From assembly GCF_022846255.1 (NCBI RefSeq), contig NZ_AP025682.1: a stretch of 64,000 nucleotides of DNA; one strand, written 5' to 3'. Below, one piece after another: positions 10,655 to 50,451 of this stretch (positions are counted from its first letter, which is position 1; every line of letters begins with the position of its first letter). The notes beneath the pieces are model-generated. The model did no database searches. It saw nothing but the letters and a program-made list of their open reading frames with translations, and was not told the DNA's origin. The stretch is from Escherichia coli (GTDB lineage: Bacteria > Pseudomonadota > Gammaproteobacteria > Enterobacterales > Enterobacteriaceae). The position numbers were made by a program, and so were the translations under genes.

Positions 10655-10750
10655 TGTTGTGATTTTGCACGCAGCACGTACTGTCAGAGAAATCAGTGCT
10701 CTGACAGTACGCAAGATCATCTCATACTCTTACGATCTGCAATATTATCC

Positions 10751-12175
10751 TTAATGTTTAACCATGACGTGGCGGACGACGGTGTAATCCTCCAGCCCAT
10801 AAAGTGACATATCCTTGCCGTAACCAGAAAGTTTCTGCCCACCGTGCGGCATTTCACTTACCAGCATGAAATGGGTATTGACCCAGGTACAACCATATTG
10901 CAGCCGCGCGCTGACGCGATGCACCCTGCCCACATCTTTCGTCCATACCGAAGATGCAAGTCCGTACTGGCTGTCATTCGCCCAGTTCACCACCTGTTCT
11001 TCGTTGTCGAAGAGCGTAACACTCACTACCGGACCAAATACCTCTTTTTGCACGATGGCATCGTCCTGTAATGCGCCAGCCAGCAGCGTCGGCGCATAGT
11101 AATAGCCATTACCCTTGCGCTTTTCACCGCCAGTGATCACTTTGATGTGCCCTGTCGCTTTCGCCTCTTCTACCGCCTTGCTGACGCGTTCGAGATGCGC
11201 CAGCGAGCTTAAAGGTCCAAGCTCCGTAGACTCGTCATCCGGCGAACCCGATTTTAACGTTGCCACCGCAGCACCGAGTTTTTCCACCAGCGTATCGTAA
11301 ATGCCTTTTTGCGCGTAGATCCGACAAGCCGCAGTACAATCCTGTCCGGCATTGTAATAGCCAAAAGTACGTACACCTTCGACCACTGCTTCAATATCCG
11401 CATCATCAAAAACAATCACTGGCGCTTTGCCACCAAGTTCCATATGAGTACGCTTAATGGACGGCGCGGTATGGCTGATGATGTGTTCCCCAGTGGCGAT
11501 AGAACCCGTCAGCGACACCATCCGCACTTTGGGATGTCCGGTCAGCGGATCGCCCACCGTTTTGCCTCTGCCAAACAGCACGTTAATCACGCCAGCCGGG
11601 AAGATATCTTTCGCCAGCTCTGCCAACTTCAACGCGGTCAGCGGGGTAATTTCTGATGGTTTAAGCACTACGCAGTTCCCTGCCGCCAGCGCCGGAGCCA
11701 GTTTCCACGCAGCCATCATCAGCGGATAATTCCACGGTGCGATAGAAGCCACGACCCCCAACGGATCGCGACGGATCATCGAAGTATGACCTTCAAGATA
11801 TTCACCTGCCGCCAGACCATTCAGGCAGCGCGCCGCACCGGCGAAAAAGCGAAAGACATCGACAATCGCCGGAATTTCATCATTGAACGCGCGATGCAGC
11901 GGTTTGCCACAATTACGGGACTCCAGTTCGGCAAAAACCTGACCATTTTCTTCAATAACATCAGCCAGTTTCAGCAGGCATTCCGCACGCGCTTTTGGCG
12001 TGGTTTGCCCCCATTCGGCAAATGCTGCATCTGCCGCGCGAACAGCAGCATTGACCTGCTCTGCGGATGCCTCGGCAATCTCCAGTAAAACGTCCCCCGT
12101 TGCCGGATTATAGACAGGCTGTTTTTCCCCTTCGCCGCTAACCAGTTCTCCGTTAATCAGTAACTTATGTTGCAT
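10751..12175 (-). CDS. patD: gamma-aminobutyraldehyde dehydrogenase (474 aa)
   Basis: ORF track; aldehyde dehydrogenase family sequence with catalytic Cys region. Confidence 0.93.
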
Positions 12176-45962: not shown

Positions 45963-46087
45963 CGCACCCTGCCCTGTAATAAAACGGATTAAGAAAAATC
46001 AGTATAGGAATGAATAGAGATAAATAATGCGAGGGTGTAAACAAGATTACTGGATGAGTAGCTCTAATATCCTGAAAGACACCAAAA

Positions 46088-46149
46088 CAAGACGCGTCAA
46101 GTACCGCATCCGGCAATAAAAAACCGCAACCTGTATCAGCGTTGCGGTT
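46088..46149. repeat. REP-like palindromic unit plus hairpin with T-run (likely paaY terminator on the minus strand)
   Basis: GACGCGTCAAGTACCGCATCCGGCA REP-like motif; AACCGCAAC...GTTGCGGTT hairpin followed on the minus strand by TTTTTTATT. Confidence 0.5.
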
Positions 46150-46162
46150 AAGGTATCACATG

Positions 46163-46783
46163 CTAAAAATTAGAACGTTCAGCATCTGGACGTGACTGTT
46201 TCGGTCGCAGATTCTCATCAAATACCAGACGCTGCCTGCCAGGTTCAACTTCCCGCAATGGCTCGACTTGATGCAACGTCTGCTTACAACGTGTCACCAG
46301 CACCTGATACTCATGCGTGCCCTGCTTTTTCCATGCCAGCTCCTGCTCACTAAGTTCACGAATCGCTTTTGCCGGGCTGCTGACAATCAGATAATTAGCA
46401 GGCATTTCTGCTTTGGCTTTCACAAATGCGGATGCGCCAACAATACTGTTCTCACCAATCACCGCACCGTCCATCACTACCGCGTTCATTCCCACTAACG
46501 CATTGCGGCGGATAATGCAGCCGTGAAGGATAGCGCTATGACCAATATGCCCATCTTCTTCAACGACAGTATCCTGCCCGGGAAAGCCGGGCATAACGCA
46601 ATTATCCTGAATGTTCGCGCCATCTTTCACCACGATACGACTAAAATCACCTCGCAGGCTGGCATTTGGTCCAACGTAAACGCCCTTGCCGAGAATAACA
46701 TCGCCGATCAATACCGCTGTCGGATGAACAAAACTCTCTTCTGTTACAATCGGAGTCAGACCGTCTATCTGATAAATTGGCAT
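46163..46783 (-). CDS. paaY: hexapeptide-repeat thioesterase / gamma-carbonic-anhydrase-like protein, PaaY-type (206 aa)
   Basis: ORF track; [11 protein letters not shown]... with left-handed beta-helix repeats; GGAGG RBS; the rest of the paa operon is absent from this window. Confidence 0.75.
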
Positions 46784-46818
46784 AACACCTCCTGTTCAAT
46801 ATTCAAACCGCCAAAACG

Positions 46819-47124
46819 TTGAAAATACAGGCTACCCGGCGAAGGCTGCTCACCGACCGAGGTTTCACCTTTTTCACTAACGAACGCTACAGCAGCAGGC
46901 GCTACGCGCTGATAAAATTTGCCGATAAAGGTTTGGTGGTCGCGCAATATATTCGTAACCGTCGTCTCGATTTTTGTGCAGATGCGATTCGCCATGCCGC
47001 AGATGATGAAAAACTGGCAGGCATTGGCTTTCATTGGGGATTTTCCGACCAGAGTCATTTTTCAACGGTATTTAAACAACGCTTTGGGATGACGCCAGGC
47101 GAGAATCGGCGTAAATTCCGCTAA
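46819..47124 (+). pseudogene. feaR: AraC-family regulator, C-terminal HTH fragment (likely feaR remnant)
   Basis: 101-codon ORF ending in an AraC-type second HTH (GFHWGFSDQSHFSTVFKQRFGMTPGENRRKF); no N-terminal domain; adjacent to ydbL as feaR is in K-12. Confidence 0.5.
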
Positions 47125-47161
47125 CTAATTCGCGTTGCATGTACAGCAACGCGAATTAGTT
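47123..47161. repeat. perfect 16-bp inverted repeat (hairpin) spanning the feaR-fragment stop
   Basis: AACTAATTCGCGTTGC-ATGTACA-GCAACGCGAATTAGTT; no flanking U-tract on either strand. Confidence 0.6.
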
Positions 47162-47295
47162 AAAACAGATATTTGACTATGCATTTTTCAGGGCAAAAGA
47201 CAATTTGGCAGGAATTTTTGAATAATCATCTTATTTCCGGAAAATAGATTAATCGCCTTCTCCTGTAGCGTTATCCCGATATTGCGGTTTTGCTA

Positions 47296-47622
47296 TTAAA
47301 ATTTTCGCACCCATTTACCGTTTATCCCTTGTACATATTCCCCGGGTTTGGCCCGTTCTACGAGCTTTTGCCCGGCGAGTTTCGCGATATCATCCACCGA
47401 CACATTATTTTGCTTTGCCAGTTGTTGATAGCTCGCTTTACGTTCGGCATTGATGTCGGTTACTAATTTCTCAGTTTCAGCATCTGTTTTCAGCGCAACC
47501 AGATAACCATAAAATGTTTCGCCTACCCGCCCCTGAGTTCTGGCTTCATCCAGAGTCAATGCCATTACATTGCTGCTTACCAAGCCAACAAGAAATGCAC
47601 AAAGAAGTAATGTTCTTTTCAT
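47296..47622 (-). CDS. ydbL: YdbL (DUF1318) periplasmic protein, 108 aa
   Basis: ORF track 47296..47703; start placed at MKRTLLLCAFLVGLVSSNVMA signal peptide with GAGGTG RBS. Confidence 0.88.
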   Translation of the reverse strand: MKRTLLLCAFLVGLVSSNVMALTLDEARTQGRVGETFYGYLVALKTDAETEKLVTDINAERKASYQQLAKQNNVSVDDIAKLAGQKLVERAKPGEYVQGINGKWVRKF

Positions 47623-47629
47623 CATCACC

Positions 47630-47815
47630 TCAAAAAAGATCGCTACGGGTCTCAAGCAGCTCTTCGACATCTTTGTCTGCCTTGATGATGATCTCATGCT
47701 CAATTTTAACGTTCATATTGATAGTGATCGGTTCCTTAGGTGCAGCGACTTCAATGCGAGGCGTACAGCCAACCAGCATAAAAGATGACGTCAACGCAGC
47801 CAGTAAAATTTTCAT
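47630..47815 (-). CDS. ynbE: YnbE lipoprotein (61 aa)
   Basis: ORF track; lipobox LVGC. Confidence 0.88.
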   Translation of the reverse strand: MKILLAALTSSFMLVGCTPRIEVAAPKEPITINMNVKIEHEIIIKADKDVEELLETRSDLF

Positions 47816-50451
47816 TGTTTATCCTCACACTCTTTTCCTTGCGGACAGTCATTTCCCGGTAGACGCGCGTTCTGCTCCAGCCATGCCTGGAGATTATCGC
47901 CAAAGCGTAAACTGCGCCACAGCGTAAAAATATTCTCTTCATGATGGTAATTAATATTTACCGTACCGCTTTTACCATCAACGCGACTGGTACCTGTAAT
48001 ATTGGCCTGCATGGTTAATAAACCGAGATTATCTAAATTAATTTTTGTCGATGAACGGCTAATTTCCATATAGCGCAACCAGTTAATTGCTGAACCCGCG
48101 GTCATATTGTCTTTCACCACCGCATCTGCGGTGTCTTTATCCAGCCGCAAGGTCATCGGCCCGCTATTTGCCAGCCAGCCGTCTTTCACAATCCATTTTT
48201 CGTTGTTTAGCCATAACGGCAATGCACCACTAAATGCCCCGGACATGGCGAATTGTTTCGGATTGACGGCGCTAACCAGTTCGCTGGAGGAAAGATTATT
48301 CAGCCGCAACAGCGCCGGGTCATGTTGCGGCATACGTAATTGTTTCATCAGCACGTTACCGCCTAACACATCGACGCTAACATCAGTCAACAGCAATGGT
48401 TCTTCTTCAGTCCACGGATAACGCCCTTGCAAATCAGCCGTAATATTTTTCGCTGTAACCAGATTAATCACTTCGGCAATTCGCAACGTAACGGGACCGC
48501 GAGTCCCCAGATGCCAGGCTCCATCGGCAAAACGGAAAGGCAGGACAAAATCGACACCGTTAACCTGATTATCTGGCATCCAGGCACTACCGCCTTTCAA
48601 CACGCCGTGCCCTCCCGCGCGGAATCCTTGTTCGGGCGCTGCTGAAAATGCAACCTGAGCATACAGTTCACCATCGCGTAAGTTCATCTTCCAGTCGGGT
48701 GGCACCAACGGCTGGAATACAGTCAGTGATTGTTTAGGCCACCAGGCGTTACCGCGCAGACGAATACCGTCCCAGCGACCATTTACCCGAACCGGGCCAA
48801 TCTCACCAGCATGTAAATCGCCTTTAAAGAGGAAATACGTCGGATCGCGCCCATCGACGCTAAATTTTAAGGTTGATGGCGGTAACACACTGCCGCCAGT
48901 GAACAGCGTTTGCCCGGCGTCCAGTGACAGCGCGCCGCTGAAGGAGGGATGCTGTGCGTCACGTCCCCAGACGACGGGCTTGTCGAGAATTAATCGCGGC
49001 TTTTCTACCGTCATCGTACCGTATTGTAACTGGTCGAAACCGGTGGAGAGATCGGTCAGCGTAATCGTGCTGTCATGCCACTCACCTTTTCCTGCGACAT
49101 CCCAGGTGGCATTCATCGGTGTAAAACTCCCTTTTCCCCAGTAGCGCCACTGCCAGCGGCCAGCGTCAGGGAGAAAATCATTCGCCAGCCCATCCATATG
49201 CAGCACGAAATCGCCCAGTTCATTTTCATGCGCCTGCAAAATGGCCTGCAAACGTCCGTCAACACCACGTTGGGTGACTTTTACACCCGCTAAAGGCCAG
49301 CGGATTTCATCGATGTCCAGCGAATCAATGACTCTTCCCTTTGAACGAAGTAACGCGCCAGGCTCAAAGGTCAGCGTTGGGTCAGACAGACTTCCACTTA
49401 GCTGCGCAGGTAAACGGGCATATAAAATGAGGTCCGCCTGTTTCGCTTCACCGGTCAGCTGCAGAGGCAGCTGGCTGTTATCCATGCTTAATTTTCCTGG
49501 GCCAAAATTTAACACCGCGTTGCCTTTACCCGCTTGCCCCTGGGTCAGCACACTCAGTCGCCCGCTGACCAGAGCGTTCTCGAGCCCTGCCTGCCAGTTG
49601 TCGACTTTAACACCCAGTCGGCCACTCAAAGGAAAACCTGCATACGGCCAGCTCCAGCGACCATCGCTTACGGTCAATTGTTGACGAGTAATTTGCCACG
49701 GCAAATCGAGCAACGGATCGCCGTTATCCCGTGCCAGCACAATCAATTGCCCGCTATTTTCCTGCCAGTCCAGCTCGGCATCCACCAGTGACGGTTCCTG
49801 CGGCAAGTTTAACGTCGCAGTAGCATGACCACTTACCGGAAGTCCATCCGGCACGAGCGGCATAGTAAATTCCCCCACCAGTTTTACCGGCGGCTGATTT
49901 TCAAACGCGGCGACATCCAGTTCGCTGACTGTAAGTTGTTGCCCTTTCAGCTGGCCTTGAAATTTAACTTTTTCGCCCTGATAACGCAGTTGCTGGATAT
50001 CGGAGGTTAATGCGAGAGAGAGTTTTCCCTGCCATTCCTGCCAGGGAGAAAAAATCAGTTTATCGATATTGATCCAGGTGTTAGGCAGCATGGACTGCCA
50101 CTGCGCGAGGGTTTTTGGAGCGGCTGGCGATTGTTCCGCCTGCGGCAATTTCGCCAGACAAGCAGAATCAAGTTCTACCGTGCCGACGTTCAATAACCAG
50201 CGGCTGGGATGTGAAAGGCTGGCGTTGGTGATATGCGCAAGCTGACAATCTCCCACCAGATAACGGAGATCGGGGATGATTAAACCTTTACGCGTAATGC
50301 GTGGGCTTTCATCTAATGCAATACGTGTCCCGAGCGGTAGCCAGATGCCCGCCAGCGTGGGAACCCACAGCCCGAGCGTCATCAGCAGCGTCAACGGCAC
50401 AAGAATAATCAGTAATAACAGCGCGAGAACGGCTTTATATTTACCCAGCAT
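47812..50451 (-). CDS. ydbH: YdbH, AsmA-like large envelope protein (879 aa)
   Basis: ORF track; N-terminal membrane anchor; operon with ynbE-ydbL. Confidence 0.9.
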   Translation of the reverse strand: MLGKYKAVLALLLLIILVPLTLLMTLGLWVPTLAGIWLPLGTRIALDESPRITRKGLIIPDLRYLVGDCQLAHITNASLSHPSRWLLNVGTVELDSACLAKLPQAEQSPAAPKTLAQWQSMLPNTWINIDKLIFSPWQEWQGKLSLALTSDIQQLRYQGEKVKFQGQLKGQQLTVSELDVAAFENQPPVKLVGEFTMPLVPDGLPVSGHATATLNLPQEPSLVDAELDWQENSGQLIVLARDNGDPLLDLPWQITRQQLTVSDGRWSWPYAGFPLSGRLGVKVDNWQAGLENALVSGRLSVLTQGQAGKGNAVLNFGPGKLSMDNSQLPLQLTGEAKQADLILYARLPAQLSGSLSDPTLTFEPGALLRSKGRVIDSLDIDEIRWPLAGVKVTQRGVDGRLQAILQAHENELGDFVLHMDGLANDFLPDAGRWQWRYWGKGSFTPMNATWDVAGKGEWHDSTITLTDLSTGFDQLQYGTMTVEKPRLILDKPVVWGRDAQHPSFSGALSLDAGQTLFTGGSVLPPSTLKFSVDGRDPTYFLFKGDLHAGEIGPVRVNGRWDGIRLRGNAWWPKQSLTVFQPLVPPDWKMNLRDGELYAQVAFSAAPEQGFRAGGHGVLKGGSAWMPDNQVNGVDFVLPFRFADGAWHLGTRGPVTLRIAEVINLVTAKNITADLQGRYPWTEEEPLLLTDVSVDVLGGNVLMKQLRMPQHDPALLRLNNLSSSELVSAVNPKQFAMSGAFSGALPLWLNNEKWIVKDGWLANSGPMTLRLDKDTADAVVKDNMTAGSAINWLRYMEISRSSTKINLDNLGLLTMQANITGTSRVDGKSGTVNINYHHEENIFTLWRSLRFGDNLQAWLEQNARLPGNDCPQGKECEDKQ

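Follow-up and report, generated by a model that had tools for sequence, protein, structure and literature searches.

A perfect inverted repeat with arms of 17 nt each lies between the convergent genes feaR and ydbL in the stretch of Escherichia coli DNA analysed here (64 kb; the window). By analogy with known transcripts, there is about an even chance (a probability of roughly 0.5) that this palindrome is a 3′-end-protecting hairpin, i.e., one that blocks exonucleases on Rho-terminated transcripts and is shared by feaR and the convergent ydbH-ynbE-ydbL operon. Its position at a stop codon, its stability, the lack of a U-tract, and the dependence of termination on Rho on at least one strand lead to this reading. 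The features concerned are the following (window coordinates):

46918-47124, plus strand: C-terminal fragment of feaR, 68 codons plus stop.
47122-47138: left arm of the perfect inverted repeat, TAACTAATTCGCGTTGC; its first three bases (47122-47124) double as the TAA stop codon of the feaR fragment.
47131: variable base of the left arm; C in the window, G in K-12, A in a minor lineage.
47139-47145: loop ATGTACA, 7 nt.
47146-47162: right arm of the perfect inverted repeat, GCAACGCGAATTAGTTA.
47153: partner base in the right arm, co-varying with 47131; G in the window, C in K-12, T in the minor lineage.
47163-47295: the remaining, E. coli-specific feaR-ydbL spacer, containing neither a conserved ORF nor a terminator-like site.
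47296-47622, minus strand: ydbL, last gene of the ydbH-ynbE-ydbL operon, converging on the palindrome from the right.

An earlier note, made from the letters alone, had described a perfect palindrome of 16 bp across the stop of the feaR fragment. It is indeed perfect and does span the stop, but the flanking T and A pair as well, which extends the arms to 17 nt. The palindrome is far above chance expectation: it is the longest perfect hairpin of the 64-kb window, and the longest perfect arm in 100 composition-matched simulations did not exceed 12 nt, compared with 17 nt here. Its RNA was predicted to fold with −24.9 kcal/mol on the plus strand and −25.5 kcal/mol on the minus strand (z-scores of −9.6 and −8.0, respectively; none of 200 shuffles was as stable), and no other strong structure was found downstream of ydbL. 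Irrespective of the strand, no T-run follows the stem, the tails being AAAACAGA (plus) and AGCGGAAU (minus), and a terminator scan of positions 46700-47800 returned no terminator-like site; the loop ATGTACA, the convergent genes, and the missing U-tract on either side, all of which the earlier note had pointed out, were thus confirmed in the sequence and by the scan. Promoter-like matches around the palindrome were at background level. An Rfam scan of positions 46000-48500 at a permissive threshold gave chance-level matches alone (E-value >5), none of them on the palindrome, which also carries no RefSeq annotation. No second copy of the arm exists within the 64-kb window, even when three mismatches are allowed. 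The second-longest perfect hairpin of the window (positions 10677-10711; 13-bp arms CGTACTGTCAGAG/CTCTGACAGTACG, 9-nt loop) lies ∼40 bp past the stop of a 474-aa ORF (10751..12175, minus strand) and has no T-run; it may be another 3′ hairpin devoid of a U-tract.

The gene order around the palindrome (hrpA, azoR, pdxI/ydbC, paaY, paaX fragment/feaR fragment, palindrome, ydbL, ynbE, ydbH) agrees with that of E2348/69-like strains. At the deletion junction 46917|46918 (within 46765-47124), a C-terminal fragment of paaX (minus strand) is fused to the C-terminal fragment of feaR (plus strand); the rest of paaX, paaA-K, paaZ, tynA, feaB, and most of feaR were lost, and the strain the window stems from has no intact paaX. 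The same paaX-feaR junction is annotated in E2348/69 and S1-IND-02-A, and the sequence across it was matched in ∼259 of 5,426 genomes. Since feaR is a promoterless fragment in the window, situated beside oppositely oriented genes, only the ydbL-sense transcript can matter there. On the minus strand, the spacer (47163-47295) constitutes the 3′ untranslated stretch from the ydbL stop to the hairpin, which the ydbL transcript meets ∼135 nt past the stop codon; in strains with intact feaR, the hairpin begins at the feaR stop codon. With the deletion, ydbH-ynbE-ydbL came to be followed on the same strand by paaY and pdxI. A small ORF in the spacer (22 codons, start at 47180) was discarded as a candidate gene because it is cut to 9 codons in K-12 and, thus, not conserved. 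Likewise, the palindrome is not the boundary of an island or a recombination event, as the junctions at 46917|46918 and ∼47232 are both away from it.

The palindrome is single-copy and E. coli-specific. Of 5,426 complete genomes, 3,976 were matched by a 79-nt query, the median being one site per genome; with allele-specific queries, the number rose to ∼4,190, and the site was invariably flanked by feaR and ydbL. When metagenomes were screened with a degenerate version of the palindrome, all 120 contigs retrieved likewise had feaR and ydbL as flanks, and the few apparent copies on plasmids or phages turned out to be mislabelled chromosomal pieces, among them records of 4.8-4.9 Mb and an unannotated one of 23 kb. 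Conservation in relatives, which the earlier note had brought up, is divided: ∼77% of complete E. coli genomes have the palindrome in a well-paired form, but it is absent from every non-E. coli relative found. In Pseudocitrobacter (two loci) and Pluralibacter, the stop codons of feaR and ydbL abut without any spacer, and the convergent arrangement of the two genes is older than the palindrome. A sister Escherichia (strain SCPM-O-B-8794, labelled E. coli; locus L009) lacks it too; its feaR is 94.4% identical to that of K-12 at the nucleotide level and its YnbE and YdbH proteins are ∼91-93% identical, and its spacer of ∼90 bp is unrelated and forms no strong hairpin. At the nucleotide level, the locus ceases to resemble E. 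coli precisely where feaR ends, at its stop codon (L009 3395-3800). YdbL of the same strain is only ∼75% identical, versus 96% for FeaR and ∼93% for YnbE, which suggests that ydbL and the spacer either change at a much higher rate than the adjacent genes or have been exchanged.

The ∼23% of E. coli genomes without the palindrome lack it because of islands or IS-mediated rearrangements. In E. coli fS54a (L019 1771-3004), an IS5-family element (ISKpn26-like, with a frameshifted transposase and a TTAG target duplication) sits inside the right arm, which shows that the palindrome can be split without obvious harm. Strains of the type of 8178 have kept ydbL and miss the 17-bp palindrome. The whole feaR side has given way to an A+T-rich island in strain 8178 (L003 2150-2520) and in two or more further strains; the island junction in 8178 corresponds to window position ∼47232-47234, inside a weak palindrome, ATCTTATTTCCGGAAAATAGAT (∼47228-47249). 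In EC590 (L004 1788-2500), another E. coli strain, an IS1B abuts a 5′-shortened ydbL match and the feaR side is replaced; IS1 also adjoins the locus or lies upstream of it in other strains (13P484A, L017 1-208). The interval between feaR and ydbL seems to be a rearrangement-prone spot. Being confined to E. coli, missing from ∼23% of its genomes, and split in one strain, the palindrome is young and dispensable, and its dispensability counts against a protective role.

Approximately 99% of the palindrome copies belong to five alleles, named here after the base at arm position 10 and its partner:

C·G (window type): perfect; 880 genomes.
G·C (K-12 type): perfect, and the loop ends pair too, giving 18 bp; 1,401 genomes.
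G·C with T·G as the uppermost pair of the stem: a single wobble (U·G in RNA of the feaR sense); 1,321 genomes.
A·T: perfect; 129 genomes.
C·C: mismatch; 412 genomes.

Taking the ∼4,190 genomes together, the combinations at pair 10/32 are G·C (2,722 genomes), C·G (880), and A·T (129); the pair is complementary in 89% of the copies, by way of three base combinations, and mismatched (C·C) in 10%. Fourteen of the 17 stem pairs are invariant among the distinct alleles. In a shuffle control, the observed pair count was attained by 24 of 500 shuffles; with one co-varying pair and seven related sequences to draw on, this weak significance is given no weight here. The first and the last base of the loop are polymorphic within E. 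coli as well, and in the K-12-type loop, ATGTACT, the end bases pair, which results in an 18-bp stem with a 5-nt loop. Irrespective of these differences, all natural alleles are predicted to fold strongly (−19.5 to −27.6 kcal/mol). The fraction of polymorphic sites is 5 of 41 (∼12%) in the palindrome, 12.6% in the spacer, 5.6% at the 3′ end of feaR, and 7.5% in ydbL; pairing thus appears to be kept while the primary sequence of the palindrome is as variable as that of the spacer. Free base identity together with kept complementarity argues for a hairpin, made of either RNA or single-stranded DNA, and against a site recognized by a sequence-specific protein. Of the two options the earlier note had offered, a structure or a protein-binding site, the former is therefore favoured by the three complementary states of the variable pair (C·G, G·C, and A·T), whereas the same freedom, which is not expected of a half-site, leaves the latter unsupported. 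Co-variation of a single pair can, however, arise by template switching without any selection, and the persistence of the C·C mismatch at 10%, on two flank backgrounds, indicates that perfect pairing is, at most, under weak selection. The common B1-type allele (loci L005 and L006) carries adjacent substitutions, CA to TG, at the stem/loop boundary (47138-47139), which create a (TG)3 run and two positions compatible with G·U pairing in the feaR-sense RNA only; the adjacency of the two changes points to one event, either templated or by slippage.

How transcription behaves at the locus can be assessed in K-12. In MG1655, the palindrome is located at ∼1,446,340-1,446,380, with ydbL ending at 1,446,206 (plus strand) and feaR at 1,446,378 (minus strand). 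A Rho termination region has been reported at 1,446,501 (plus strand), antisense to feaR (Adams et al. 2021, PMC7815308, Supplementary file 2), which is ∼120 nt past the palindrome in the ydbL direction. The reads upstream and downstream of this position numbered 54 and 14, respectively, in untreated cells, and 87 and 91 in the presence of bicyclomycin (Rho score 4.03, p = 1.3e-5; Adams et al. 2021, PMC7815308). Transcripts in the ydbL direction are therefore ended by Rho, at a resolution of 800 nt, the size of the windows from which the score was derived and which do not place termination precisely relative to the hairpin. As the drop in reads is gone when Rho is inhibited, polymerase passes the hairpin, which is consequently not an autonomous terminator in this direction. 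To judge from the identical stem and the U-poor tails, polymerase probably passes in the feaR direction, too. A canonical intrinsic terminator was rejected, given that there is no U-run, no site in the scan, and, in the ydbL direction of K-12, no drop once bicyclomycin is added; the earlier statement that the palindrome is not a classic terminator was correct in this regard. Term-seq under three growth conditions called no 3′ ends at 1,4462xx-1,4464xx (Adams et al., Supplementary files 1, 3; PMC7815308), which low expression of the ydbHL operon may explain, and the TRS paper contains no relevant 3′-end entry for the locus. The suggestion that the element works bidirectionally is borne out only in so far as the same stem forms in both transcripts; no 3′ end was mapped at the hairpin on either strand.

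If the palindrome is indeed a protective 3′ hairpin, its transcription from either side would yield a very stable RNA hairpin without a U-tract, which itself would probably not stop RNA polymerase. The enzyme would run past, Rho would end the transcript further downstream, and 3′-to-5′ exonucleases would trim the RNA back until blocked by the hairpin, leaving a stable 3′ end. We infer, accordingly with due reserve, that the 3′ ends would be located at the hairpin and that it would stabilise the mRNA. Rho-dependent transcripts of E. coli have precise steady-state 3′ ends just past stable stem-loops lacking U-rich tails; PNPase and RNase II trim the RNA back to these protecting stem-loops, termination lies further downstream, and the sequence downstream of the stem-loops is rich in C over G (Dar and Sorek 2018, PMC6061677). 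The palindrome resembles this class (NAR 46:6797) in being a stable hairpin just past a stop codon without a U-rich tail, in the Rho dependence of termination on at least the ydbL strand, and in a mild downstream bias for C over G, the C/G ratio being slightly above 1 in both directions (1.1-1.4 and 1.2-1.9). It differs from it in its stem, which with 17-18 bp is of unusual length and perfection and has a rather A/T-rich base, in serving two convergent genes, and in that no 3′ end has been mapped at the hairpin.

The strongest competitor, clearly less probable than a protective hairpin but a possibility to be taken seriously, is a neutral palindrome that arose when an error created an inverted duplication and that template switching during replication has since kept perfect, without the need for any function of RNA or protein. 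The nascent strand would fold back and copy one arm from the other, so that a mutation in one arm leads to the matching change in the other. Experiments in E. coli have established quasipalindrome mutagenesis via template switching (PMC7202029, PMC6357072). Perfect inverted repeats with arms of at least 13 bp are ∼150-fold over-represented in non-coding DNA of MG1655 and stay perfect more than expected, for which template switching, from imperfect to perfect, has been invoked (Lavi et al. 2018, PMC5941160). A neutral origin is also in line with the palindrome being young, lineage-specific, dispensable, and no more conserved in sequence than the surrounding spacer, and with the stability of the hairpin when folded as single-stranded DNA (−18.6 kcal/mol).

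Further evidence on the neutral origin comes from the history of the alleles, for which the flanks of 108 loci, representing 64 haplotypes, were used to build a tree, the palindrome itself being masked. In this tree, C·G occurs across numerous deep haplotypes and is apparently the ancestral state; the A·T haplotypes are nested next to those with C·G; G·C clusters shallowly with its T·G derivative; and C·C, the intermediate that template switching predicts and which exists at 10%, has two backgrounds and falls between C·G and G·C. One of these backgrounds has flanks resembling C·G upstream and G·C downstream, so that C·C on this mixed background may be a recombinant joined inside the palindrome (C·G × G·C) rather than a mutational intermediate. 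The other is near-identical to a G·C haplotype, with essentially only position 10 of the left arm being different. At the level of the alleles themselves, C·C differs from the K-12-type G·C solely at this position and from C·G at the partner base and the last loop base, a pattern that would fit template switching. A·T was seen only together with truncated feaR (in both of the two informative loci, plus three RefSeq rows annotated as fragment), whereas C·G was found with both intact and truncated feaR, and strains with C·G and A·T have the same deletion junction in common. The most economical reading of these flanks is that the double change from C·G to A·T postdates the loss of feaR; recombination could also explain A·T.

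Tentatively, and with no more than a minor share of the probability, the locus can be viewed as a population-scale record of quasipalindrome correction, in which the same pair of a 17-bp hairpin was re-perfected at least two times. If so, one path led from C·G to G·C via the C·C intermediate still present in 10% of the copies; the other led from C·G to A·T, apparently in a lineage whose feaR had been destroyed before. Were this the case, the arms would owe their continued perfection to intrastrand template switching or to the ydbL-sense RNA alone, with no part played by a feaR-related function. Several observations weigh against a purely neutral palindrome: the mismatch persists on two backgrounds, so correction is not rapid; C·C on one of them looks recombinant; and a position exactly at the stop codon between convergent genes is what is expected of a 3′ hairpin. 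Besides, a neutral origin is compatible with a modest role of the RNA and does not exclude one.

Considerably less probable is a bidirectional terminator of the collision type, where the stem-loop of the nascent RNA fixes the point at which head-on polymerases meet and the collisions end both transcripts. Elements of this kind have been described as requiring a stem-loop and as being prevalent between convergent E. coli gene pairs (Liu laboratory; Ju et al. 2019; Wang et al. 2022), and the arrangement found here, a single symmetric stem-loop between convergent genes whose sequence is unlike that of an intrinsic terminator, matches them. The class is described as Rho-independent, whereas termination in the ydbL direction depends on Rho, the drop vanishing with bicyclomycin; in addition, the feaR fragment of the window is promoterless, which leaves no obvious source of a converging polymerase.

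An operator for a dimeric DNA-binding protein, be it PaaX or another regulator, is very unlikely, despite the fact that the palindrome has perfect dyad symmetry, adjoins the PaaX-regulated region, and contains in its arms TAATTC/GAATTA, one mismatch away from the PaaX half-sites TGATTC/GAATCA. The comparison with sites of dimeric regulators, which the earlier note had proposed and which covered PaaX as the one candidate at hand, spoke against it, as the PaaX operator fits neither in sequence nor in spacing: it reads TGATTC-N27-GAATCA, versus TAATTC-N21-GAATTA in the window, i.e., with 21 instead of 27 nt between the half-sites. K-12 has PaaX and yet worse half-sites (TAATTG-N21-CAATTA), the window strain has no intact paaX, the variable position can be C, G, or A with an always complementary partner, which is a signature of base pairing, and a site at the 3′ ends of both genes has no promoter to control. 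A weak intrinsic terminator, formed by a G+C-rich inner stem (CGCGUUGC...GCAACGCG) followed by A/U-rich AAUUAGUUA, with upstream UAACUAAUU able to pair with the tail and strip it from the RNA:DNA hybrid, is permitted by the sequence architecture, and mixed or transitional terminators have been noted as possible (Dar and Sorek 2018, PMC6061677), but it is just as hard to uphold because the tail has 4 U in 9 bases and drew no call in the scan, reads do not drop in the ydbL direction when Rho is inhibited (87 vs 91), and the same stem is present on both strands.

The remaining likenesses place the palindrome among elements already described; it belongs to a known class, either that of U-tract-less 3′ hairpins or that of long perfect intergenic inverted repeats, and does not represent a new system. 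With the repeats of Lavi et al. 2018 (GBE 10:918) and the quasipalindromes of the Lovett laboratory, it shares being a long perfect non-coding inverted repeat that was re-perfected after change and that has an imperfect intermediate allele in the population; those repeats were scored across species, whereas the palindrome is confined to E. coli and the variation is within the species. REP elements have been described as dual terminator/stabiliser elements of 3′-UTRs (Harris et al. 2026 preprint; classic REP/BIME literature). Like these, the palindrome is extragenic, located in the 3′-UTR between convergent genes, and variably present among strains, and the roles proposed are alike (exonuclease barrier, partly Rho-dependent attenuation); unlike these, it is single-copy per genome, not G+C-rich, and without the REP consensus. 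Identity with REP/BIME was consequently dismissed, considering the median of one place per genome (5,426 genomes) and the lack of a second copy in the window. With the bidirectional terminators (Ju et al. 2019; Wang et al. 2022), it has in common a single stem-loop of non-intrinsic appearance between convergent genes; that class differs by its Rho independence from the Rho-dependent termination in the ydbL direction found here.

The practical value of the palindrome is modest. For E. coli, it probably defines the 3′ end of the mRNA of the ydbH-ynbE-ydbL phospholipid-transport operon and, in strains with intact feaR, probably sets the 3′ end of the feaR mRNA, too. Beyond this single locus, the allele series at pair 10, spread over ∼4,200 genomes, could serve as a natural test of whether selection on RNA structure or template-switch mutation underlies the perfection of hairpins.
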